Notes under the pieces: model-generated | The model's database searches: none | Told to the model about the DNA's origin: nothing | What the model saw: only the letters and a program-made list of their open reading frames with translations | NCBI GenBank assembly: GCA_051362555.1 | Contig: CM120641.1 | Location: 1,426,001 to 1,490,000, forward strand | DNA: 64,000 bases | Reading direction: 5' to 3' | DNA from: Lingula anatina | Taxonomy: Eukaryota; Animalia; Brachiopoda | Translations under genes and position numbers: made by a program | Shown here: positions 44,203 through 60,908 of the stretch, piece after piece | Layout: the number at the start of each line of letters is the position of its first letter | How positions within the stretch are numbered: position 1 is the stretch's first letter

Positions 44203-44208
44203 TTTATT
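44203..44208 (-). terminator. Candidate polyadenylation signal of the PKS gene
   Basis: AATAAA on the minus strand about 155 nt after the stop codon. The region is very AT-rich, so this could be chance. Confidence 0.4.
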
Positions 44209-44362: not shown

Positions 44363-44484
44363 TTAATGTAAAGTCAATAACACAATTTTCCGCAGCTCAT
44401 TCGCCCAGGTTTCTGCGGCGTGATAGTCCTTGGCTCGGAACACGTACTCGCGATCCTTCCCTTCGATATGTAGACTGGACCAGC
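44363..44484 (-). CDS. PKS terminal coding exon (C-terminal half of PH domain)
   Basis: GWSSLHIEGKDREYVFRAKDYHAAETWANELRKIVLLTLH*. Acceptor cttatttccattccAG. Matches the PH beta6-beta7-helix pattern with the conserved Trp. Confidence 0.85.
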
Positions 44485-47400
44485 CTGGAATGGAAATAAG
44501 ATATAATTCCCACTGATGACCGTTTTTATTTGGTTGTTTTATTAAGCTGATAAAGTTGTAAGATGGCATAGCATGTAGCCCGCTGTATGTTTTCAATCAC
44601 TTTTGAAATCATGTGCTTCGTGTCGAACGTAGCTTTTGCATCGACCTGTGCTTCCCTCTGTTAGAGAAAACACGTACTAAATATGGTCGAAAACATATGG
44701 AATGAAGATGTAAAACTCGATTATTATATGAAAATGATTAGGAAACACTGTTTATAATCTTGCAAGTTGGTGTCATACATACTTACCTTTTGACTGAGAA
44801 AATCCGACTTTTTCAATGAGATTTATTGCAATTGATTTGGATTCTTTAGAAATGCCGGTGTCGTCTGCCTTTTCTGACCACACCAGTTGTGGCCAGCCGC
44901 CATTTTGTGAAGAGATCACTCGGACGAAGCGTTTGTGTCGTATACCTTTAGGATTCACCTTAGTGAAAAACATCCCTGGTGAATAACAAAAGATGAAAAT
45001 GCATAAATTATAAAATTGTAAAAGGACTTGAGTAAAAATTTTTTCTACTACGTTCAACGATTTAGTCAGATAATTAAGCTTATCATTCGACAAAAATGTT
45101 TTTTATTACTCTTACTGAGTAAGAAATCCCTGTTAATGTAAATTATAGGTCATGTTTAAAAAAGACTACTATTTCTTTCAATTATGTCCAATGAAATTTA
45201 ATATAACAATTGCCTTGGCAGGGGCATACTTAAATAAGGAGGCATTGACCGTGACACCTACCTGTACGTAATATTTCTGATATGTCAGGCGGAGCATGTG
45301 TCGCGTTACTATACTGGTGGATACCATTGCCGTTGGATGCGTTAGCTGTAGCCGAACTCTGGGACAGAATCTCCACATTACATAAGGCAATAGTTCTTTG
45401 TGGGTCACTTGTGACCAAAGACAGCAAATATTCAAAGTTCGAAACAATTACTCTGGCTTCTTTTTCACTAAGGAGGTCGCTAGAGTAGTCCAGAGCTAGG
45501 TCTATCTTTTCCCTTTTCTTATCATAAAGAATCCGAAGCCTCGTCTCGTGCGTAAGAATAAGTGTGCGCGCATCTTTCATATAAGCTTGCTTTTCCCGGC
45601 TCTCACTCTTGTCAGAGTACTTCTCAAACAAATCCTCCTTGAAGGACGACGCTTCGAGGATGATTTCATGGCGAGTCAAGTAAGGGCGGTCTTCTGGCGC
45701 AACCAAATTTCTGATATTTTCAAATGGGTACAGGCTGTTCTGGATGCACTGTAGGATGCTTTTGGCATTTCTACATATGTAGCTGGCGATGGTTTCATGC
45801 GCATCATCGGGGAAGGAAGCGGGCAATGGAATGAAATTGACGCAGTCGGTGACAGTGCGCAAGAGGCCGGGGACGTGCATGCGCAGATCAACTGGGTTTG
45901 AGACAACGACGGTATCTGCACTGCATAACTTGTGAAGAACCAATTGATGCACACTAGCTAAAACCTGAAAAACGGTGACTTTCTCTCTTTTGCAAAATTC
46001 GCTGAGTTTTTTCACAATTTCTACTGACAAAGGCCGTTCAAGCGTAGAATACTCGCCTGAGATCTTTTCGAGCGGAGTTGATTCCTTTGATAACCGTACG
46101 TCTGACATTTTATCTGGAAGAATGCCGGACCAGAATTCCTGGAGCTCCTTCATTTTGGTCGTTGTCAATACCTTCCCTATTTCCTCTGCAATATTCGGAA
46201 CATCTGCATTCTTGTAAGCTTTCATGGATATACCGCTAGTTTTGGCTGCTACAACAGACATAAGATCCTGAAATATGAGGGGCACTGAAGTCATATCGAG
46301 GGCGCTGTGGTGAAAAACAAACCTCAAATAGCTTCTCGGTTCGGTAAGAACGAAGGCCACTCGCCATGGAGCCTCTCTGATGAGATCGAATGGCGAGCGA
46401 GTGAATGAATTCAGCGAGGGTGTCACTTTAGTTTCAGACCCCTCTAGTGTGAGGAAATCCACAGGAGCATCCTCAGGCAGGAAAGATATTTTTACCTCGT
46501 CTATTCCATCGCCCGTACCAGGAGTCCTGGGAACAAAGACTGCTCTTAGCATTGGGTTGCGGCGTGCAACTTCATTCAAAACTTCTTGCCAGAACCCGGA
46601 TGTTCCAGGGTTTTCTGGGAGTACCAGTGTCATGACCACGTGGGCGCTGAGATCGGATGGATTTGCCCGGTTTCTTTTGTACGAGGAGTACTGCATGAAT
46701 GATGGTGTCAGCAGAGGCCCTGTGGGTGAGGAATTGGCAGACACGGAAATTGGTAAATGAGCAAGTGCTTCTTTCGTTCCCTGTGGCTTGGGCTTGGTTT
46801 CCTGTTTAGCAAAATCGCCAGGGAGTCTCTCGTCTATGAAACTAGCAAGTGCGGCCGCGGTGACATCCTCACTTAGTAACACCACAACTGGTATTGTGAC
46901 CTTCAGCTCCTGGTTCACCCTGTTGATCAGAGACATGGCAATCATGGAATCAATCCCCATGTCTGAGATCGAGGCATCGGCGTGGACGGCTAAAACGTCC
47001 ATGCCAAACAGAGAGGCAACAACACTGCGGGAGTATTCGACCAGTTTTAGGTAGCGCTGCTCCGCACTCAGCGACTTCAGTTCTCCTAACGTCACGGTGC
47101 ACTGACCCTGGTCTGAGTGTGCCTTGTTTTCAGTGGAAGCCGCGCCGCTGTGCAGCTGCATTATGGTGGTGTACCGAGCTCGAATTGGGGAGTTTTCTGC
47201 TCTCTGTAACTCCTGCACCATCTTATTCCAGTCGAAATTGCCATAGAGAACTTGAGTCTCGTTCTTCAATAGCGCGTGGTGGAGACACTTCACAATCTCA
47301 GGTACCGTAAGAGAAGCGTGTCCCATTACCTTAAGAATTCTCTCTGCAGCCTCGTCGCCTTTCAGAAGACCAATCTCTAGAGCGCCCCAGTTTATAACTT

Positions 47401-50400
47401 GCGCTACCATATTCTGCTGTCGTCTGTAGAAAGCAAGGGCGTCCATAAACGAGTTGCCGGCTCCGTAATTTGTTTGACCTCCATTTCCCATCAGTGACGT
47501 CACGGAAGAATGCATGACAAAATAGTCGAGACTGTACTCTCTCGAAATAAGGTGAAGATTCCATGTGCCAATGATCTTGGGGTTAGTTGCTTTCTCAAAC
47601 TTTTCTTGATCAAGATTCAACAAGATGCCATTTTCTAGAACAGCCGCCCCGTGGAATATACCTTTAAGGGGAACGCCGGGCAACGTCTGATCCAATGATC
47701 CGAAAGCTTTCTTCAAAGAGGAGAAATCCATGACGTCAGCCTGAACGCAAATGAACCGCACGCGGTGCTCGTTTTCCAGACGCTTTATGCTGGCAATTTG
47801 TTCACTGTTCGGGGCCCGACGTGACATAGACACGATATAACCTGCTCCGTTCGCTGCCACATATTTGCTGATTTCCCACCCAAGGCCAGTTAGACCACCG
47901 ATAATGAGGTAGCTTGCGTCCCGTCTGAATAAATCATTAGGGCCGGCATACACAACTCTGGACATTGCTTTCTTGTGGAAACGCACAATATCCACAACGT
48001 CATCAGGGCTGTGGTCGTGTTGGTTTTCAATTCTTGCCAGCATGGTGCTGCCGAAATCTATGCGCTTGTGTAGATCTACAGCTTCAAGCTTCATTTCATT
48101 CACCGTGATATTTAGGTTAAGCTGGGGCTTTGATTTTAGTTTCTTGAACCAGCGTCGGAGTGGCGGGATGGTAGCCCGAAGGCTCGGTGGGTTGAACGTG
48201 TCACGGAGGAGACAGGTGTGTATCTGGGTATTCGGTAGGTGACCTGCAAGTGCATTAATGATAGGACCAGAGACCCATTCCTCCACCACAATCAGGGACT
48301 GGGGATTCTGCCAGGAACCAGCCAGACATTTCACATCCAGTAATCTCAGCTCTTCCAGAAGGACAAGGGTTCTATGTTCCAGTTTCTCGCGGTTTTGAAG
48401 ATCTTTTCTGGGGATGATCTCAGCCGCCAGGTTCTTGTAGCCTGCGAATGTTTTAAACAGCTTGCTCAAAGCAGAAGTTTCATGTGTGTGGACAATACCA
48501 ATCGTCCCAAGTTTTGCAGAAACCAAATCGAGAACTTTCCTGACTAAGATAAGCTGAGCAAGCGATGTCTTGGCAAATTGCGGAAGATCTTTAGTGCGGA
48601 ACACGCAGTCCTCTGGAACCTTAAGTATGGACGCTGCTTTTGTGGGATAACATGTCAGCACCGTCTCTCCTACTCGGAAACTGGATTTGGGGCCAGTTTT
48701 TAAAACCTGTCCCTCCACGCTTAAAGTGAGGACATCATGCCCCGGTGCCTCAGCAGTTGGCCAGTAGGAGTAACTTGACTTTAAGTCGGAAACGGTTACT
48801 GGGAACAGCAACGGCTGATGGAGATATACAAGATTGGTCGATACCAACAGGTGCCCTTTCCCTGCGTTGAGATCACTGGAGTCACTTTGATATTGCAGGT
48901 GGACATCTTTTAGTTTCCTACTGTGGCAAGACACGAGCTTCACTTTACTATCTTCCTCGGATATATTTTCCCTGTATTGAATGTAATTGAGGTTTTCAGT
49001 CACTGGCATGATTTCATTGAGGTAGAAAGATCCTGCTGCGACCACAGTTTCGGGAAACTGCTTGACAAATGCTTCTATGTTCTTCAAGGCATTGGATACC
49101 GCTACCAGACTCTCTCTGCCTTCTTGCACGTCGACAAGACTGACTGCGTCATACGTATACTCTCTGAGGAGACTCCGCACCATCCCCCACATCTGAGATC
49201 CGACTGGACTCAACGTGGCATTGGATGATTGGCTTACACACTGGCAATTTCTGGTTAGAACCACAATGGGCACTTTGCAACCGGCTCCGTGAAGCAATTT
49301 GATGAGCTGCCTAAATCCAGAACATGCTATTTGACAAGCGTCGTTGACTTCTTCAGCTGTTGGGAAGATTCCTACGTCCGCTATTCCCCAGGCAAAGACC
49401 ACTCCACGTAATCGTGCTAACTCACTGAATGTATTACTTAGGAGATCTTGCAGTCCGTTTTCATCGCGCACCTTGCCTTTGAAGGCACTACGAGGAATGC
49501 GACATATTGGACCTTCTAGTCTCTCTGCAATATGTTCTGCGACTTTGCAGGGATCGGTAAGTACTAACCAAGAGTCACCCCGTAGTCCCAGATCCGCGTC
49601 ACCAGATGGCGCTACTGCAGAAGCCGCAGGCATCTTATTCCACTGAAGCTGATAAACAAAAGCTTCCTCAACCCGCTTGCTCTCTGAAATGAACTTTGTG
49701 ACGTAGTTATGGGTCTCCACTACCACCTCTCCATCTTGCGTCAACAACATGGCGTTGAAGTGAGCTATCTCGTGTGGTTTATCATGCATCAGTCTGCAGT
49801 AAGCGTACAGCTTCCTCTGAGGCGGGCGCCTGACGGTCAAACTACCAATACCCACGGGAATAGACGGGTCCGTCGCCTCGTTACCTACGTAAAATATTCC
49901 TGGGTTCTGAAAAAGACCATCGAGAATGGCGGGATGGATGGTGGTACTGTACATCTGTTGGCACACAACGTCTGGGAGCTCAATCGAGGAGAGACACTCG
50001 ACCTTGTTTCTAGATGCTCCAGTGATGACTTTCATACTTGGCCCGTACATGAACCCCAGCTTCTCCAGTGCCCCGTATATGACCTCTTCCGTAAGGTGTT
50101 CCGTGCACCTGCTCTTTATTTCCTCTATATCCACTGCCTTGACGCTGTGGATGTCCTCCGTGTAAATGACGCTACCTCGGGCGTGAACTCTTTTGTCTGA
50201 TTTGATGGTGAAATCATTTGAGCAGTGCTCCTGACCTAGGTCGTCTGCAGAGCCGAAATCAACTTCCAGTTTAGCACCCTTCCCGGGAGACAAGATCACA
50301 GGACGAACAAAGTCAACGTGAACCAAGAAGTTTTGCACGGGTTTTTTGGTCGAGGCAACTGCAGCCGTCAACGCAATTTCTGCATAGAAGGCGCCCGGTG

Positions 50401-53400
50401 CGACCACCTTTCCTCCCATATAATGGTCATATATGAACGGTGTCAAATTATTGTCAATGACTGCGGCATATTTAATGCCGGCACTTGGCAACCTCTTTAC
50501 AAAGGGATGGGCAAAATGGGAATCACTGTCAATTCCAGCGCGTTTGAGTTTAGAGGACTCTGGTTCAAAATAGTTCCAAATCCTTTTGAATTGATACTTT
50601 GGAGCATCAACTATAGCAACGTTTTTCATGGAAACGACGTTTTTCCACAGTGGATTGAGTCCCAATGTGTAGATTTTTGCCACTGCTTCACTTAGGCAGC
50701 TCAGCTCGCTACCTTTTTTCATAGACGGTATCACGGGTACGTCGCTTCTGTCTCGCATGTGAGCGCGCAGCACTGGGTGTGGTCCTATTTCAATAACGAT
50801 GTTGTCATGATCGTCCGTAATAGCAGCGTCTACAGCTTTTTTGAACTGAACAGGCTGACGCACGTTTCTTCCCCAGTACTCGGCTGTGACAAAATCTTGG
50901 TCTGACGCCAACTCTCCAGTCACTGTGGAGAATATAGGCACGTCTGGCGTTTTGCCTTTTAATTCCGATAAAGCAGCTTCTACTTTAGACTTGATATCTT
51001 GCATATGGTGACTGTGGTAGGCGCACTCAGTTGGCAGGTCTTGGACATACACACCATTAAAACGGATCGTGTCCCGGAGGGTCACTTTCAGATCTTCTAT
51101 GGCGTCTGCGTCCCCTGAGACAACGCACGATGTCGGGCTGTTAAATACTGCGATGTTGAGTCTACCCGAGTATTTTTCTGTAAGGACTTTCTCCAACCAG
51201 ACCGTTTTGTAATTCATCACAATACACATCCTTCCCCCTTTGGCTTCTGACAGAAACTTGGTGCGATAATAGATGGTTGTAACAGCATCTGGGAGGGAGA
51301 GAGCACCGGCCACGTGGGCGGCTGCCACCTCTCCCACAGACTGCCCAAGAACTGAAGACGGCGTTATACCCCAATGACGCCACAGCGCTGCTAGGGCCAC
51401 CTGGCAAGTGAAAATGGCAAGCGGGGCCACGTCAGCAGACGACAAGTCTTGATTCTCTTTAAATATCTCTAGTATTGACCAGTCGGTCAGGGGCTGCAGT
51501 AGATTGTCAATTTCCTGGACTTTATCTCTGAAGACGCCTTCTTCCCTTATCAAACCCCTACACATGCCTTGCCACTCCATTCCCATGCCACAGAAGACAA
51601 AAATGGCGTTTTTGGGCGCCAGACCCACTACTGGCTGTTCTGGCAAATTGGATACATCCGATTCCAGTTTGCGAATGCATTCCTCGATAGATGTCGCTGT
51701 GGTTGCAAGTCGGTAATTGTAATGAGTTCTCCTACAAGTTGATGTGCGCGCAATATCTCTCAAACTGTATTCCTTATTTGAAACCTTTTCCATGAGGTTT
51801 TTAGTAATCTGTTCAAGGGACCACTGATTTTGAGCTGAAATTGCAATGATTTCTGGGGATTTTTCAAATGCCTCTGTGGCCTCATCTGTCATATCAATGG
51901 ACACATTCTCACTGCCCAAATCCTGACATGTCTCATGACAATTTCTCTCTTGTGTGGCGTTTTCGGTCATCTCACTGTCAGTTTCTTCTTGTTCAATACT
52001 CATAACTGGTTTTTGGATGGCTTCTCTACTAAACTGCATGACCACGGCGTGTGCATTGGTTCCTCCAAAACTAAATGAGTTGACACAGGCAAGACGGGGC
52101 TTTCCCTCGGGCGGTGTCCAGTTCATAACCTCTGTAGGCACTCGCAGTCTGAGCTCGGGAAAATTAATCTTCGGGTTGGCCGGCCGGCCCTTGAAGTGCA
52201 AGGAAGGGACGATCTTCTCGTGTTTCATCATGAGGAGCACTTTAATGAGACCCGCTACACCTGCCGCCGATTCAAGATGGCCGATGTTGGTTTTCACTGA
52301 GCCTATATAACACTCGGATGCTCCCCTCGCCTTTCTGTCCAGAAAGCTGCCAATGGCGTTGCACTCCACGGGGTCGCCAGCTTGGGTCCCTGTCCCTATT
52401 TACGGGACAAGAAATAGCAATGATGATGTTATATGCAAAGCATGTGTATAAAACTCCATTAAATATCAGTTAACATTAATCATGTTCATATAACATTTAA
52501 ACACAAAACCAGTAATTATAATTGTGCTCATATTGCAGTAATACTTTGTACATCATTTCTTCTATTTATTATTACATACATATTATATTCTATTAAGGCT
52601 TGTTAATTTATGAAATTCGTGTAAAATATATGTATATATTTACCATGAGCCTCCACATACTGGATATCATCTGAGTTGACGTGGTACTTTGCAAACACTT
52701 CCTTGAGCAGTGCAGCTTGTTGAGAGCCTGACGGAGCCGTGATAGGGTGAGCCGTGCGGCCATCTTGGTTGACGCCTGTACCAATGATGGCCCATATTTT
52801 GTCTCCATCTTTTAACGCCTAGCGAATTCGACATGAAACATTATCAGATTAAAATAACATCATCAAAATGGGAAGTCGGACAATAGTTTTTCCTCCGTGT
52901 GAGGGTTCCTTGGATGTTTAAAGTAAATAAACCCTATGCAAAACAAAAACTCTGTTTGCATTTCTCCAAAAGATGACTTATGATCATCAGTTTGTTTTAC
53001 GTATATACAGCATTGGTCAAAAAGGTTGTCCCACCCCCATTTCCATGTACTTTTATTTACAAATGATCACCTCGCAGCTGTGAACTGTTAGAAATAGTGC
53101 TTTTTATCACGGATACCGTGTCTAACATGATTAATGGTTAAAAAAATACAAAATAGTGGTGAAAATATACATATTTTATACCATTTAGTAACATTTATAA
53201 GAGGTACCCCCTCAAATCGACTGTTTCACTGTTACTTCTACAGATGTAAAGAAATGTCTATAAAATTGAAAAGGTGCCATCAAATGTCACCAAATTCACA
53301 CACAATTAGCATTAGGGTGTGCTTATTAAAGATCACGTGCCTAACAGCGTGTGCCTCTACCGCGTACTGCAATTATCTCCTGTAGACGGCGCGACAAGCC

Positions 53401-56400
53401 TTCAACACGGGTAACAATTCTGTTATGTGGGATATTGTCCCATTCATCCTAAAGAGCGTGGCGGAATTGGTCAAGATTATTTAGGAATTGGTTCTCCTCT
53501 GCAATGCACATTCTAATTTATGCCACAGGTGCTCAGTAGGATTAATATCAGGACTCAAAGACGGTTGTCCCATCCTCAGAGCCCTGTGTTTCTGCAACAA
53601 ATCGTTTGCCAGACGAGAGCTGTGAGCAAGTGCGTCGTCACAATGAAACCAGTAGTATCCCTGAAGTCACCTCTTGCAAATGGAGTGAGATTTCTGTTGA
53701 GAATGTTACATCAAAATGCCCCTGTTACGTTTTGTTCCAAAAGGAACAATGTACTAATACTATGGGCTTGGGATGTTCTCCAAATGCGGATTGATCTAAC
53801 ACCTCAGGCGATATTATCCTGCACACACCCTTCCAAGAGGCATTTTTTAACATGTCTATGGACCCTCTTTGACCATCGATGGGATACAAGAAATAATTTG
53901 ATTCTGCATCAAAATCAACTTCCTTCCAGTGATGGATGGTCAGGTTCAGGTGCCTGTGGGATCACTGAACGTAGCATTCTCAGCTGATATCTCATTCCAT
54001 CTTCAAGAACTGACTTTGGGGCTAACTTCAGGCTTTATCATGACTGCACACTTGCTCACACCTCTCGCCTGGCAACTGTTTGTTGAAGAAACATAATGGT
54101 CTAAGGATGGAACCACCATCTTTGAGCCCTGATATCAAACTTACTAATCAACTGTGACATGTATTGGAGTGTGCAATGCAAAGGAGAACCAACCCCATAA
54201 AAACGTGGATCAACTCCCCCAACTTGTTTAAGAAGAATGGGACAATATCCCACATAACAGAATTGTAACCCGTGTTGAAGGCTTGTCGCGCCGTCTACAG
54301 GAAATAATTGCAGTACGCGGTAGCCGCACACGCTGTTAGGCATGTGATCTTTAATGAGCACACCCTAATGCTAATTGTGTGTGAATCTGGTGACATTTGA
54401 TGGCGTCTTTTTAATTTTATAGTCATTTCTTTACATCTTTAGAAGTCATAGTGAAACAGTCGATTTGAGGGGGTACCCCTTATAAAATTTACTAAATGGT
54501 ATAAAATATGTATATTTTCACCACTATTTTGTATTTTTTAAACCATTAATCATGTTAGACACGGTATACGTAATAAAAAAACACTATTTCTAACAATTAA
54601 CAGCTGTTAGGTGATCATTTGTAAATAAAAGTACATGGAAATGGGGGTGGGACAACCGTTTTGACCAATGCTGTAAATGTGCCAGAACATTTCGTGTTTT
54701 ATTAGCTTTCAATTAGACACATCCTACATGTAAAGGTACACAAATGTACACAGTGCAGCATTTTACCGATATGAAAAATTTGTTAGACAGATGAATACCA
54801 CTATTACCTCCAATATTAGCGCAAAACAAATCATTCAGATTAAAGTTGCTATGTTACTACAAATATGTATCTCTCTTTGACTAAATATAAAACATGTATA
54901 GCAGTAGTCACTCACGTCTTTAAGCCTTTTCAGCACCACTATGCCACACCCCTCACCACGTGCGTATCCATCCGCCGCGGATGAGAAGGCTTGGGACTGT
55001 CCTGTTGGCGACACCATCCGGGCTTTACTGAGAGGCACGTGCATCGTGGGCATCATGATAGCGTTCACACCGCCACAGAGCGCCATGTTGCACTCACCTG
55101 GGAGATTTGACAATAACAAATTGTTGAAATATGTCGTTTAAGACAATAGATCGCAAATATGGATATTTCGTTTGCATATCCGTTACATATTGTACACACA
55201 TGAGTCTCCTCTAGACAAAAACATACGAGATGATTCAAAGATGTTCTTTAAATATGATCAACACCTAAAAAAATAATCGTATTGGCAGTTGACGGACGTG
55301 TGGGTTTCATTGATTATCCAGAAAAAATTTAAGTTGAAATTACCAAAAATATGTTGAAACTGTCTACCATTCATTTTGTCAACTTTTTCTGTTTGTTACA
55401 CAATACAATTACAATCAAAATTTCATTTTTATTACAAAGCCAACGGAACGAGGACCTCAATATTTAACTTCTGTTAGCTAACCATTTTGAGGGGGGGGGG
55501 GGAGGGGCGTAGGGGGTCCGAAAAATTATAAAAGCAACAAACCATTCTTCAGTGCCTGGCAGCCAAGATGCGTGGCCACCATGGCCGACGAGCACGCGGT
55601 ATCCACGGACATACAGGGACCGAGAAGGTTGAACACGTAGGACACCCTGGCGGCAGTAATGCTGTTTGAGGCTCCGGTTAGGCTGTAGTTGTTCATGGAG
55701 GACACGTCCGTCTCAAACATGTCCGCAAAGTCGTTATTCATGACGCCTGTAAAGGTAGGAATGTAATAGCCAGCTGAAACTTTTTTATGTTTTTCAATGA
55801 AGCGTGTGTTTGATTTCCCTTAATCGTTCCTTTTCATGTAAAGATAACTTTTAGCTTAAAGTATATATCATTACATATAGGACTTTTTCAAGATAGGTAA
55901 TAAACAAGCTTAGCGGATTTTTAAGTTTACAGAATGCAAGGAGAGATACAACAAACTAGCTTTCTATAACATTTTTATGACGCCACGTTCTATTTTTTCT
56001 TTCACTTCGAACCAATAGTCAGCTCAAGCTCATGCACTTGATAATGATTTATTGTATTGCTGGTTCATTCGGCTTTCAAATGCGGTATACCCACGTACAA
56101 AGCCGTATCATTCTGATTCGATGTAGAAGTGTATATAAAGCGTGACAACCAGATACAACGATGATATTAATGTATCTATGAGGGTCATTACAGTAGAACA
56201 AATAAACACACGAGACCTCATCAACTGCTACATGATTTAACTGTTGCGCGATAAGATGTGTACGTCATCATATAGTAGGGCTACACTATCCATTGTAGAT
56301 AACGGATTTCCGAGATACACGTAAAATTATAAGATTATGTACTTATGCCAGTCCCTAACCACCGAGCGAAATTACACAGGCATACACCCTACTTTAGTAT

Positions 56401-58290
56401 TTGTTTAAAAAATGATCTAGAATAATGAAAAAACAATTGAATCAACTGGAAGTTGTCATCCACTGCTTACCAACATACACCCCGGTCCGGCTTCCCTGTA
56501 TATCCGGGGTCGGTATCCCAGCGTTCTCCAGCGCCATGTAACAACAGTCCAGTACAAACCGCTGCTGGGGGTCCATCCTCGCCGCCTCCAGGTCGTTGAC
56601 CCCAAACAGCCGGTTATCCCACTCTATGTGACTCCTGAGGGAATAGTGGATTTTGATGTGAAATTACGCTTTAATACGGTAGATTTGTTAGGTCGATGAT
56701 ACAGCGATAAACGTTATTTGACGTGCAAAAAAAGCAGACTTCTGTGAACAACACGTTTGGGGAGACCGGGGCTAGTTGGACCCCGGGGTAAGTTGCCCCC
56801 CTCCCACCCATCAAGTCTTTTTAATATTGTTACTTTAAGACGCTAAATTGTTTCATTTGGACTCACTGCCGACGCTTTCTTAGCACTATTGGATACGGTC
56901 ATTTTACAAAATGATGTGGTCAATTCTTTTATCCCATAGTTACTTTGTCATAAATTGATGGGGGTCCAACTTACTCCGGGGTCCAACTAGCCCGTCTCCC
57001 CTATTAAAAGCACATCTAACTTCTATCGTTCATTATTTCTATTTAGTGATTGTTTTTTTCTTACCCACCACGTCTGTTCTGGGTATCATTTCCCCATTTC
57101 ACTTTGCTTTTTGGTCTTATATACATATATTTCTAGCAAAAGTATCCTACATGTGTTCTCTGCCTTTCAACAGCACTAGCTTATTGTTTGATCTAAATGG
57201 TGCATCTTCAACCTGCAGTCCTGCCTTTCATACAATTGATTACATTTTATATAATACATCATGAAAGGTGAGAAAATTTAGATTTACTACAAACATTAGC
57301 TATTAACACAGTTATTTTTATTATCTTTATTTATTTATTTATTTGCGAAAACATTTTATGTGTGATTTCAAAGCACTCTGCAGTAAGGACGATGTGATAT
57401 GAAATGGAACTTTGCGCACTACACCAAAAGTGAAAGCTTATGTTTACTACGACCGCTCGCTGTATCAGGTTAAATGAAACGCGAGATGTATCAGGTTTTG
57501 TATCTAATCTAATAATTTGTGTTCCTTATTGTGCGCCAAACGAGCATTTGATCCGTTTTAGCTTCGATGGCCATAGTCAAATATGTATTATGAATTTGAC
57601 AAAAGGAAGAAAGAAATGAAGGAGTTAGATTTTGTGGTGCTTTCAAATAACAGCTACTGATGAGAATGAGCGATGTTACAAATTTCCAAATGAAAAAAAC
57701 TTATCGATAAGGAAAGTGAAAGTGAAAATAAAAGTGGACTGCGAGGCAGGGAGAGGAGGTTGGCGCACACATTCTTCAAATATCGTACTTGTTTCAAACT
57801 TTAACCGTGTACAAGTTTTCTATAAGTTAAGTTTGTGCCCTAACAAAACGATATTCTTAAAAGCACTCTTTTTAAAAACGCTTTGCTTTCCTTGAACAAA
57901 GAAAATAGTACCCATTGACGTGTTCATGGTGTATTTCTACGTCTTTTTACTACAACTTATAACTACGACACTTGCTCATAAATGTATTAGAATTTTTAAC
58001 GAGACTGCGTAGCTGATCTTCCTAAAACTGCTTCTTGCATCAAGTGAGAATGGGGAAGAAGATCAAAATTTCACCTACCCTTTAACAAAGCCAGCCCGAG
58101 TGACGTAGGTTTTGCCAGGGGCATCTGGGTCAGATGAGAAGAAAGCGTCATTATTCCATCTTTCTTTTGGTATATCAATCACGTGGTTCTCTCCATTTTC
58201 AAGAACTTTCCAGAATTCATCAATGTCGTCTGCTCCGGGAAAGCGGCAGCCGACGCCGACGATGGCGATAGCGTCATCGCCTAACATCAT
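44363..58290 (-). CDS. Animal-type iterative type I polyketide synthase with C-terminal NRPS condensation and PH domains (KS-AT-DH-psiKR-ER0-KR-ACP-C-PH), about 2793 aa; join of 58290-58079, 56634-56471, 55746-55543, 55097-54916, 52818-52644, 52395-45262, 44975-44787, 44484-44363
   Basis: Manual splicing. All 7 introns within the CDS are GT-AG with matching phases (2,1,1,0,1,1,1). The summed length of 8382 nt is divisible by 3 and ends in TAA. Motifs: IAIVGVGCRFPG, MDPQQR, DTACSS, EAHGTGT, KTNIGHLESAAG (KS); GQSVG and AYHS (AT); HYMGGKVVAP and HPAILD (DH); GGLTGLG and NYGAGN (KR); GIDSM (ACP); HHSALD (C); C-terminal PH pattern. Confidence 0.93.
44787..44975 (-). CDS. PKS coding exon 7 (N-terminal half of PH domain)
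   Basis: GMFFTKVNPKGIRHKRFVRVISSQNGGWPQLVWSEKADDTGISKESKSIAINLIEKVGFSQSK. Acceptor tttgttattcaccAG, donor G|GTAAGT, phase 1-1. Confidence 0.85.
45262..52395 (-). CDS. PKS coding exon 6, giant 7134-nt exon: KS C-terminus, AT (~50650-51610), DH (~49700-50510), psiKR, dead ER, KR (~47250-47925), ACP (~46825-47050), C domain (~45385-46715)
   Basis: Corresponds to the 2379-aa track ORF, extended to acceptor AG|GG ACA GGG ACC (completing HGTGT). Donor ACA G|GTAGGT at 45261. Domain boundaries are approximate. Confidence 0.95.
52644..52818 (-). CDS. PKS coding exon 5 (KS, first catalytic His)
   Basis: ALKDGDKIWAIIGTGVNQDGRTAHPITAPSGSQQAALLKEVFAKYHVNSDDIQYVEAH, in a different frame from the track ORF at 52608-52808. 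Donor G|GTAAAT. Confidence 0.92.
53008..54673. mobile_element. Foldback non-autonomous Tc1 (DD34E) derivative in a PKS intron
   Basis: TA|CAGCATTGGTCAAAA...TTTTGACCAATGCTG|TA termini with ~700-bp inverted arms. The left arm on the minus strand encodes HCDDALAH...SPDINPTEHLW with 34 residues between D and E. The right arm encodes EEWDNIPHNRIVTRVEGLSRRLQEIIAVRG, a Tc1-like C-terminus. Confidence 0.88.
54916..55097 (-). CDS. PKS coding exon 4 (KS)
   Basis: ECNMALCGGVN...ADGYARGEGCGIVVLKRLKD. Acceptor tctcccAG, donor GAC|GTGAGT. Confidence 0.92.
55543..55746 (-). CDS. PKS coding exon 3 (KS active-site Cys)
   Basis: VMNNDFAD...GPCMSVDTACSSAMVATHLGCQALKN. Acceptor cctttacAG, donor G|GTTTGT. Confidence 0.92.
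56471..56634 (-). CDS. PKS coding exon 2 (KS; absent from the ORF track)
   Basis: Translates as SHIEWDNRLFGVNDLEAARMDPQQRFVLDCCYMALENAGIPTPDIQGSRTGVYV. Acceptor ttccctcAG, donor G|GTAAGC. Confidence 0.92.
56759..57001. mobile_element. MITE in a PKS intron
   Basis: TIRs GGGGAGACCGGGGCTAGTTGGACCCCGGGGTAAGTTG and CAACTTACTCCGGGGTCCAACTAGCCCGTCTCCCC. Confidence 0.8.
58079..58290 (-). CDS. PKS coding exon 1 (KS N-terminus)
   Basis: MMLGDDAIAIVGVGCRFPGADDIDEFWKVLENGENHV...AGFVK. Acceptor catccAG just upstream of the ATG. Donor GG|GTAGGT at 58078. Confidence 0.92.
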
Positions 58291-59909: not shown

Positions 59910-60821
59910 CTATAATCCAATCGCGAGAAAAATATCAAATTCAACACCTAGATTCGTGTGTTCTATTAAAGGCACCCAGTTGTTAAACCTCAGAGCAATC
60001 ACACTTTTCAAGAACTTTCTGCTTGCTTCTGACAACGAGTCATCGGACATCAAAGTTCTGTCAATTTTGGCACAAGCCACGTCGATCGTGTCTATGAACT
60101 CGTCTTGCTCCAGCTTTCCCCCTACACTGATGAGCATACTGGCAACAGTCTTGATAAGATAGTCCATTGGGTCGTCTAGCAGGCACTCTATGACTTCCAT
60201 TATACTGTCTGCTAACACCAGTCCCTTCGCATACATCCGGGCAATGAAGATACCCAAATGTTTAATTTTCGTCGTCAATGAAGCTATTTGTTCAGCTGTT
60301 CTTTCCATTGAGGTCTCCAATCGGATCTGAGACGACCGGGAGTGTGAAGAGTAATCCTTCGTCGACAAACGGGCATACGAATTCAGTTTGCTCTGGTATA
60401 AGTCCAACGTAGAGTGAAAGTCCTGTTCGATTTTGTTTACAATGGCGTGGGTAATTCGCAGCTGAGCCATCTTTCCTCCTGAAGTGGGATTTGTGAATAC
60501 TCGCATCTCAGTCTGGTAAATACTGGCTATAAGTTGTACAACTGGGCCTCCGATTAAGACATCTGATTTGACATTTTGTAATATCAAATATCCCAGAACG
60601 TCTATTTCTGTACGAGTGCACACTTTCTCGAAAACAACCTTAGTGAATTGTTTTGTGATTTCCTTCATTGCGCTCTTATTTGGCTTGAAAGGGTCTATCT
60701 TTTTCGAAACAAGATCTAGAATCTTCTGGATATCCTTTCCAAGGGGCGAATTCTTTGCCATCGCCTCCACAAAGCTGTCTTGGTCAACTCCAAGGCGACT
60801 GTCAGACTCTGAGAAATTCAT
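59910..60821 (-). CDS. Intronless 303-aa MIF4G-domain protein, divergent eIF4G middle-domain-like
   Basis: The C-terminal half (HLGIFIARMYAKGLVLADSIMEVIECLL...IKTVASMLISVGGKLE...SRKFLKSVIALRFNNWVP) follows the eIF4G MIF4G pattern as I recall it (GNIKFIGELFKLKML...LECLCRLLTTIGKDLD...RIRFMLQDVLDLR..NWVP). AIVNKIEQDF resembles LLLNRCQKEF. The 912-nt ORF is uninterrupted in AT-rich DNA. Confidence 0.8.
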   Translation of the reverse strand: MNFSESDSRLGVDQDSFVEAMAKNSPLGKDIQKILDLVSKKIDPFKPNKSAMKEITKQFTKVVFEKVCTRTEIDVLGYLILQNVKSDVLIGGPVVQLIASIYQTEMRVFTNPTSGGKMAQLRITHAIVNKIEQDFHSTLDLYQSKLNSYARLSTKDYSSHSRSSQIRLETSMERTAEQIASLTTKIKHLGIFIARMYAKGLVLADSIMEVIECLLDDPMDYLIKTVASMLISVGGKLEQDEFIDTIDVACAKIDRTLMSDDSLSEASRKFLKSVIALRFNNWVPLIEHTNLGVEFDIFLAIGL

Positions 60822-60908
60822 TTTCCGTGTAAAAAAATATTAGACATTTAACCTTATTATGATGAAAGATTATTTAACTCACGACAAAGTCCGCGTTACA
60901 CAGCTAGC

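Follow-up and report, generated by a model that had tools for sequence, protein, structure and literature searches.

Organization of the Locus

The window analysed here, a 64,000-nucleotide stretch of the Lingula anatina genome, bears on its minus strand a PKS gene whose predicted product joins a KS-AT-DH-KR-ACP assembly line to a condensation (C) domain and, beyond it, to a C-terminal tail resembling a PH domain. The gene model and the encoded domains comprise the following features.

58079..58290, minus strand: exon 1, start codon and N-terminal part of KS (in-frame GT-AG model)
56471..56634, minus strand: exon 2, KS (GT-AG model)
55543..55746, minus strand: exon 3, KS with the catalytic Cys in DTACSS (GT-AG model and motif)
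54916..55097, minus strand: exon 4, KS (GT-AG model)
52644..52818, minus strand: exon 5, KS with the His of EAHG (GT-AG model and motif)
45262..52395, minus strand: exon 6, 7134 nt, with the end of KS, AT, DH, middle region, KR, ACP, C, linker and the start of the PH-like tail (ORF, Pfam, gene model)
50705..51604, minus strand: acyltransferase, Ser in GQSVG (Pfam E 8.2e-59 and motif)
49685..50485, minus strand: dehydratase, His and Asp motifs present (Pfam and motifs)
47933..49660, minus strand: 576-aa middle region (no Pfam or PDB match)
47378..47917, minus strand: ketoreductase, NADPH motif and catalytic Tyr present (Pfam E 4.8e-51 and motifs)
46835..47029, minus strand: acyl carrier protein, GIDSM at 46957 (Pfam PP-binding E 1.5e-11)
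45386..46715, minus strand: condensation domain, HHSALD at 46312-46295 (Pfam, PDB match, AlphaFold2/Foldseek)
44976..45261, minus strand: predicted intron 6, GTAGGT donor, 29% GC (gene model)
44787..44975, minus strand: predicted exon 7, with the initial two thirds of the PH-like tail (gene model)
44363..44484, minus strand: predicted exon 8, last strands of the tail, Trp-bearing C-terminal helix and stop codon (gene model; Pfam PH E 0.097)

Joining of the eight exons yields a single open frame of 2793 aa, all seven introns being of the GT-AG type with compatible phases. Five introns are located within KS and are followed by one 7.1-kb exon, while two further introns are predicted for the tail. 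The GC content of exon 6 is 47-49% against ~38% for the window. The C domain resides in a long minus-strand ORF of 2389 codons (52399-45230), whose last 10 codons lie past the AG/GTAGGT donor, and its stop at 45230 is predicted to result from read-through into intron 6. Three homologues represented by genomic ORFs terminate where this intron begins, and in our reading the same intron is probably read through in them. An AATAAA is present at 44208, beyond predicted exon 8. The uncharacterised RefSeq model XP_069131978.1 (P0241) from the scallop Argopecten irradians aligns with the Lingula model end to end, the tail included (5-2786 against 5-2644, 33% identity), and the KS domains of the two are 59% identical. 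The architecture KS-AT-DH-KR-ACP-C-tail can be regarded as very probable.

To the eye, an AG-flanked stretch at 44646-44657 (minus strand) within intron 7 might be a micro-exon of 12 nt that keeps the frame and has a weak donor; the model is complete even when this stretch is omitted. A 309-codon ORF on the minus strand (59910-60839), which lies 1.6 kb upstream of where the PKS gene starts, bears a weak match to MIF4G (Pfam E 0.0046, below the cut-off) and none in NCBIfam. An Rfam search gave 0 matches.

Inspection of motifs in the model finds the active-site residues of KS, AT, DH, KR and ACP all in place, and neither an ER NADPH motif nor a methyltransferase SAM motif. The middle region, with no PDB match below E 0.38, is likely, judging by its position, a pseudo-KR plus a dead ER. 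The ACP lies ~45 codons upstream of the C domain in the same ORF (exon 6). The first-pass annotation had presented the C domain as lacking any A, PCP or TE partner. As to A and TE, this stands: tblastn of the window with 16 proteins, among which A and TE domains were represented, detected neither domain, lancelet TE and A domains used as phmmer queries found nothing in the gene model, and the search of the window for a downstream A, PCP or TE exon found none. A carrier partner does exist, namely the ACP. The A and PCP that follow C in a canonical PKS-NRPS hybrid occur neither in the model nor in the window. Thus, the C domain is provided with a donor carrier but has no acceptor carrier.

Transcript Evidence

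RNA data were examined for eight of nine same-species runs, with 6-30% of each covered. Three runs gave zero reads on the locus and four gave reads on intronic repeats only, save for one faint bin, so that the coding exons in seven of the eight runs show nothing beyond this bin. The remaining run, X9, contributes 22 reads (88-99% identity, ~5% divergent from the window) that are spread over exon 6 between 52500 and 46710 and end at the start of the C domain. Among the differences listed, 9 of 13 are at third positions (p 0.009) and 9 are silent, a pattern that a frame under constraint would produce. In the eight runs, no read crosses the C domain or the joints between exons 6, 7 and 8; hence, the splicing of exon 6 to exons 7 and 8 is predicted. 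The probability that 11 X9 fragments would all miss the C domain and the tail is ~4%; the stop may be due to chance, or else to transcription of an allele or paralogue whose 3′ end differs. The transposon-like repeats in PKS introns 4 (52819-54915) and 1 (56635-58078) are covered by RNA reads originating elsewhere in the genome, and these reads include opposite-strand joints at 53079/53505 and 53610/54336.

The Condensation Domain

The C domain is genuine. The eight motifs that had been recognised in order at first pass are all found in one minus-strand frame, and the assignment is upheld by Pfam Condensation PF00668, which matches far beyond chance (E 1.5e-35; 123 bits against a cut-off of 30.6) and spans both lobes (profile positions 45-442 of 456). 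A PDB search with the C region retrieved NRPS C domains at E 1.1e-12. An AlphaFold2 model built from a 15-row alignment (mean pLDDT 68, with 50-70 in the N-lobe near the HHSALD motif) led Foldseek to LgrA, Txo2 and other C domains (best E 7.4e-24), where a TM of ~0.55 and an rmsd of ~8 Å indicate likeness at the level of the fold only.

The active-site motif reads HHSALDM: both His residues and the Asp are retained, and Gly is replaced by Met. The first-pass annotation had pointed to exactly this pattern, and the reading is correct, although the Lingula copy is not alone in having DM in place of DG. Gly is kept in none of the eight aligned animal homologues, so its loss is a family trait, while Asp is invariant in all eight. 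The second His is present in five of them (the window copy, the scallop and three lancelets), which share it despite ~75% divergence, while the other three have Ser, Pro and Ser instead. In the scallop, the first His has become Asn.

Mollusc PKSs with or without a C domain, their introns concentrated at the N-terminus, were described by Lin et al. 2024 (PMC10764717), who noted that offloading is unknown for most animal enzymes devoid of TE. The domain order KS-AT-DH-KR-ACP-C and the N-terminal introns are common to the mollusc PKS-C and the Lingula gene. However, in the mollusc example, as read by eye, the motif is without His and C is the last domain, whereas the Lingula copy keeps HHxxxD and bears the predicted tail. 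The portions of that paper covered here give no product for the mollusc enzyme.

The PH-like Tail

The protein is not predicted to end with C, since two further exons, overlooked at first pass, would encode a PH-like tail. The predicted tail comprises ~100 aa specified by the end of exon 6 and by exons 7 and 8. When its last 105 residues were compared with the C-terminus of the lancelet PKS-NRPS hybrid P0002, the score was 90, the best of 500 shuffles reaching 61. A profile made from lancelet sequences only places exons 8 and 7 at ranks 1 and 3 among 2195 stop-free segments of the window, with E-values (0.27 and 0.89) of which neither is significant alone. The scallop protein XP_069131978.1 carries the whole tail (profile E 1.4e-6, the best unrelated among 302 proteins compared being at 3.4), and the direct similarity between this tail and the window tail is weak, the score being reached by 1 of 500 shuffles. 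The chiton model XP_064600727.1 contains the first half.

A tail-like region was found in 13 of the 16 family proteins examined; ten of these are lancelet near-copies, so the 13 represent four lineages. The remaining three are the genomic ORFs mentioned above, which reach no further than the start of intron 6. In all 16, ACP is followed by C, TE or both. One lancelet protein has the order ACP-TE-tail with neither C nor A, indicating that the tail is kept independently of C; a protein of this kind is what would be expected if C and TE were alternative exits. By eye, no tail is seen in the mollusc PKS-C that Lin et al. present, which means that the tail is not universal in the family.

As to the nature of the tail, Pfam PH matches five of seven aligned tail rows, with the best E of 0.0016 lying under the 25.1-bit cut-off. 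Exon 8 alone gives E 0.097 and exon 7 alone no match; the scallop tail alone (E 0.055) and the lancelet P0142 tail (profile positions 7-100 of 105, E 0.2) are both below the cut-off, which is passed by no tail match. With E allowed up to 10, a PDB profile search with the tail gave 15 chains (best E 0.0071), of which the first 11, including IRS1, PLC-delta1 and centaurin-delta1, can be recognised as PH-containing. The scallop tail alone gave three PDB matches, with no named PH chain among them. The top Atlas match of the tail is a PH cluster (0.88), to be taken as a lead only. The Trp of the C-terminal helix is conserved in the window, scallop and lancelet tail rows. In the window and the lancelet, the first 35 tail residues include 6-7 basic against 1-2 acidic ones; this basic N-terminal patch is missing from the scallop tail. 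Several concordant matches, each below its threshold, make it quite probable that the tail is a PH domain.

A full-text search of the literature, with most subscription papers outside its reach, found no PKS-PH fusion, judged by the titles and opening lines of the abstracts among the papers listed. PH or pleckstrin terms do not occur in the 11 of 18 supplementary files of Lin et al. that were covered, and a PH-like tail is not among the domains in Table 2 of Hojo et al. (PMC4604110). The PKS-C architecture is already known but uncharacterised, and the new part is the PH-like tail, which is shared by molluscs and lancelets and has apparently not been described before. Public databases may already be flagging a PH-like fold on the records of homologues.

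Relatives and Origin

For the C domain, a quick tree was built from 8 animal rows, two of them assigned to animals by inference, and 45 microbial-type rows, with no fungal, nematode or rotifer rows. The eight animal rows hold together (SH-aLRT 99) and stand apart from the 45 microbial-type ones, which points to old vertical inheritance. The window C falls among mollusc-type rows (SH-aLRT 98), with the lancelets as a sister group. A KS tree, made without FAS or AFPK sequences or the HMMs of Lin et al., has the same shape, and in it the window KS pairs with the scallop one (SH-aLRT 100). Single-domain scores are the highest for animal PKS-C (86-152 bits), others reaching 63 at most. Whether the domain is an ancient possession or a horizontal acquisition had been raised at first pass: the grouping of both C and KS with mollusc and lancelet homologues argues against a recent transfer of this copy.

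A recent bacterial origin of the C domain, or contamination, is therefore highly improbable. It would agree with the 7.1-kb intron-free block of exon 6 and its raised GC content, and with the fact that 147 of the best 150 matches in a representative search are NRPS-type, multi-C proteins. These observations are set against seven spliceosomal introns in the gene, the N-terminal clustering of introns typical of mollusc PKS genes (PMC10764717), the advantage of animal PKS-C in score and the separate animal group. The other three of the best 150 are single-C proteins, namely one Logan ORF, the chiton XP_064600727.1 and the scallop XP_069131978.1, and so small a share among the best 150 listed suggests that the PKS-C family is undersampled. 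A word-indexed search with the C region gave 155 matches, and the 120 listed are all of the NRPS type, with no animal PKS among the matches listed.

Lancelet and acorn-worm PKS-C-AMP proteins (e.g., XP_002598380 and XP_002589000) were listed by Hojo et al. 2015 (PMC4604110, Table 2). The lancelet hybrids possess homologous KS, AT, DH, KR, ACP and C domains and the same PH-like tail as the Lingula gene, but add TE, with its Ser, and an A core that is truncated and has a degenerate P-loop; the Lingula gene has neither. In P0002, P0138 and P0141 this core is situated between C and the tail, with no sub-domain or PCP, and the 'AMP' domain of these hybrids is likely inactive. In the simplest reading, the ancestor was likely a PKS-(TE)-C-dead A-PH hybrid that predated the mollusc/chordate split, and the A remnant would have been deleted in the Lingula lineage.

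Proposed Mechanism and Alternatives

The features described above suggest the following scheme. An enzyme KS-AT-DH-KR-ACP-C-PH, with its active-site residues intact in one frame and without TE, A or PCP, would extend a chain iteratively, reducing and dehydrating it but leaving the enoyl step out, so that the result would be a polyene or an acyl chain reduced in part, as with the budgerigar MuPKS, whose polyene product has been shown (PMC6334511). The vertebrate MuPKS, OlPKS and ApPKS have the same KS-AT-DH-KR-ACP core, with an apparently inactive ER (PMC6334511, PMC4604110); unlike the Lingula protein, they have neither a C domain nor the tail in the descriptions covered. The C domain would then condense the ACP-bound chain with a free amine or alcohol to an amide or ester, by analogy with the fungal PKS-C TwmB of the wortmanamides, whose C domain is reported to make amides with free amino acids (as cited in PMC11153888). 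A PKS with a C domain, a free nucleophile as the acceptor (proposed for Lingula) and no PCP are common to both, although TwmB ends in C and is fungal whereas the Lingula protein is from an animal. Finally, the PH-like tail would dock the enzyme at a membrane, placing a hydrophobic product beside its acceptor or exporter. To our knowledge, TwmB has no PH tail.

The retained second His and the missing TE favour release by C onto a free nucleophile in this copy, which we consider somewhat more probable than its opposite. The full mechanism, with membrane docking added, is put forward tentatively, as a possibility that falls a little short of an even chance. Since the second His is lost in three of eight relatives, release by C would not be family-wide, and a LovB- or ClaE-like role may apply instead. 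In the fungal LovB-like PKS-C ClaE, the Asp is essential and the position of the second His dispensable (PMC13492342). ClaE resembles the Lingula enzyme in having C after ACP with no amino acid loaded, but differs in its HRxxxDG motif and separate TE, against HHxxxDM and no TE in Lingula (PMC13492342). Mechanisms of the TwmB and ClaE types would both fit the active-site pattern.

The same architecture could thus house a non-canonical C domain that serves in folding, docking or chain shaping, with release occurring spontaneously or in trans; we hold this to be unlikely, though it is the alternative to be taken most seriously. The ClaE precedent (PMC13492342), an invariant Asp beside a replaceable second His and the universal loss of Gly all agree with it, as do the TE that stands with its Ser beside C in lancelet members, the vertebrate PKSs without any release domain (PMC6334511) and the mollusc PKS-C of Lin et al., in which the second His also appears by eye to be replaced. 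Persistence of that His in the window, the scallop and three lancelets across ~75% divergence, and the lack of TE in the window protein, speak instead for release by C. The location part of the scheme has its own rival, a tail that would bind protein and recruit an aminoacyl carrier, an adenylating enzyme or a transporter supplying the acceptor for C. Phosphoinositide binding is weak or absent in most PH domains, and protein binding is frequent among PH folds. Moreover, the lancelet tail occupies the place of the A sub-domain and PCP after the degenerate A core, and the basic patch is not conserved in the scallop. On the other hand, the window shows no gene for such a partner, basic residues outnumber acidic ones in the first 35 of the Lingula and lancelet tails, and the top PDB matches include the PH of PLC-delta1, so that a protein-binding tail appears rather improbable.

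It may also be supposed that translation goes no further than the read-through stop at 45230, or that the tail is not a PH domain, which would leave an ordinary mollusc-type PKS-C. None of the eight runs contains an RNA joint between exons 6, 7 and 8, a transcript-derived mollusc PKS-C ends without a tail and every PH match is under the curated cut-offs. Still, the splice sites are canonical and in phase, spliced scallop and lancelet records bear the tail, and exons 8 and 7 stand at or near the top of the window segments by the lancelet-only profile (neither being significant alone); we judge this reading improbable.

Implications

Among the mollusc PKS-C and lancelet PKS-C-A enzymes, no characterised member was found in the literature covered, and the portions covered of PMC12833800, PMC11414698, PMC11869996, PMC10531068 and PMC12652611 give no function for a PKS-C. 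Two pks genes rise jointly with a patched3-like gene in the purple nacre tissue of a pearl mussel (PMC12652611).

The gene bears on how chains leave animal PKSs devoid of TE, and on the cellular site at which these enzymes act. Owing to the intact HHxxxD and the compact ACP-C-PH end, release and location are testable in one construct. The tail would escape gene calls that end at the giant exon, as well as domain scans run with standard cut-offs. In a broader and more speculative view, which we consider fairly unlikely to hold in full, bilaterians may have inherited a membrane-targeted PKS-C-PH family with a signalling-type PH domain having taken the place of the NRPS A sub-domain and PCP; docked on a phosphoinositide membrane, the synthase would use its C domain to pass a polyene straight to a lipid amine or alcohol, and the products would form an undescribed class of animal lipids acting as a pigment, a signal or a mineralisation factor. 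Apart from that view, a eukaryotic signalling-type domain retained by molluscs and lancelets at the C-terminus of an enzyme derived from PKS-NRPS would illustrate the fitting of a microbial-type assembly line to animal cell biology.
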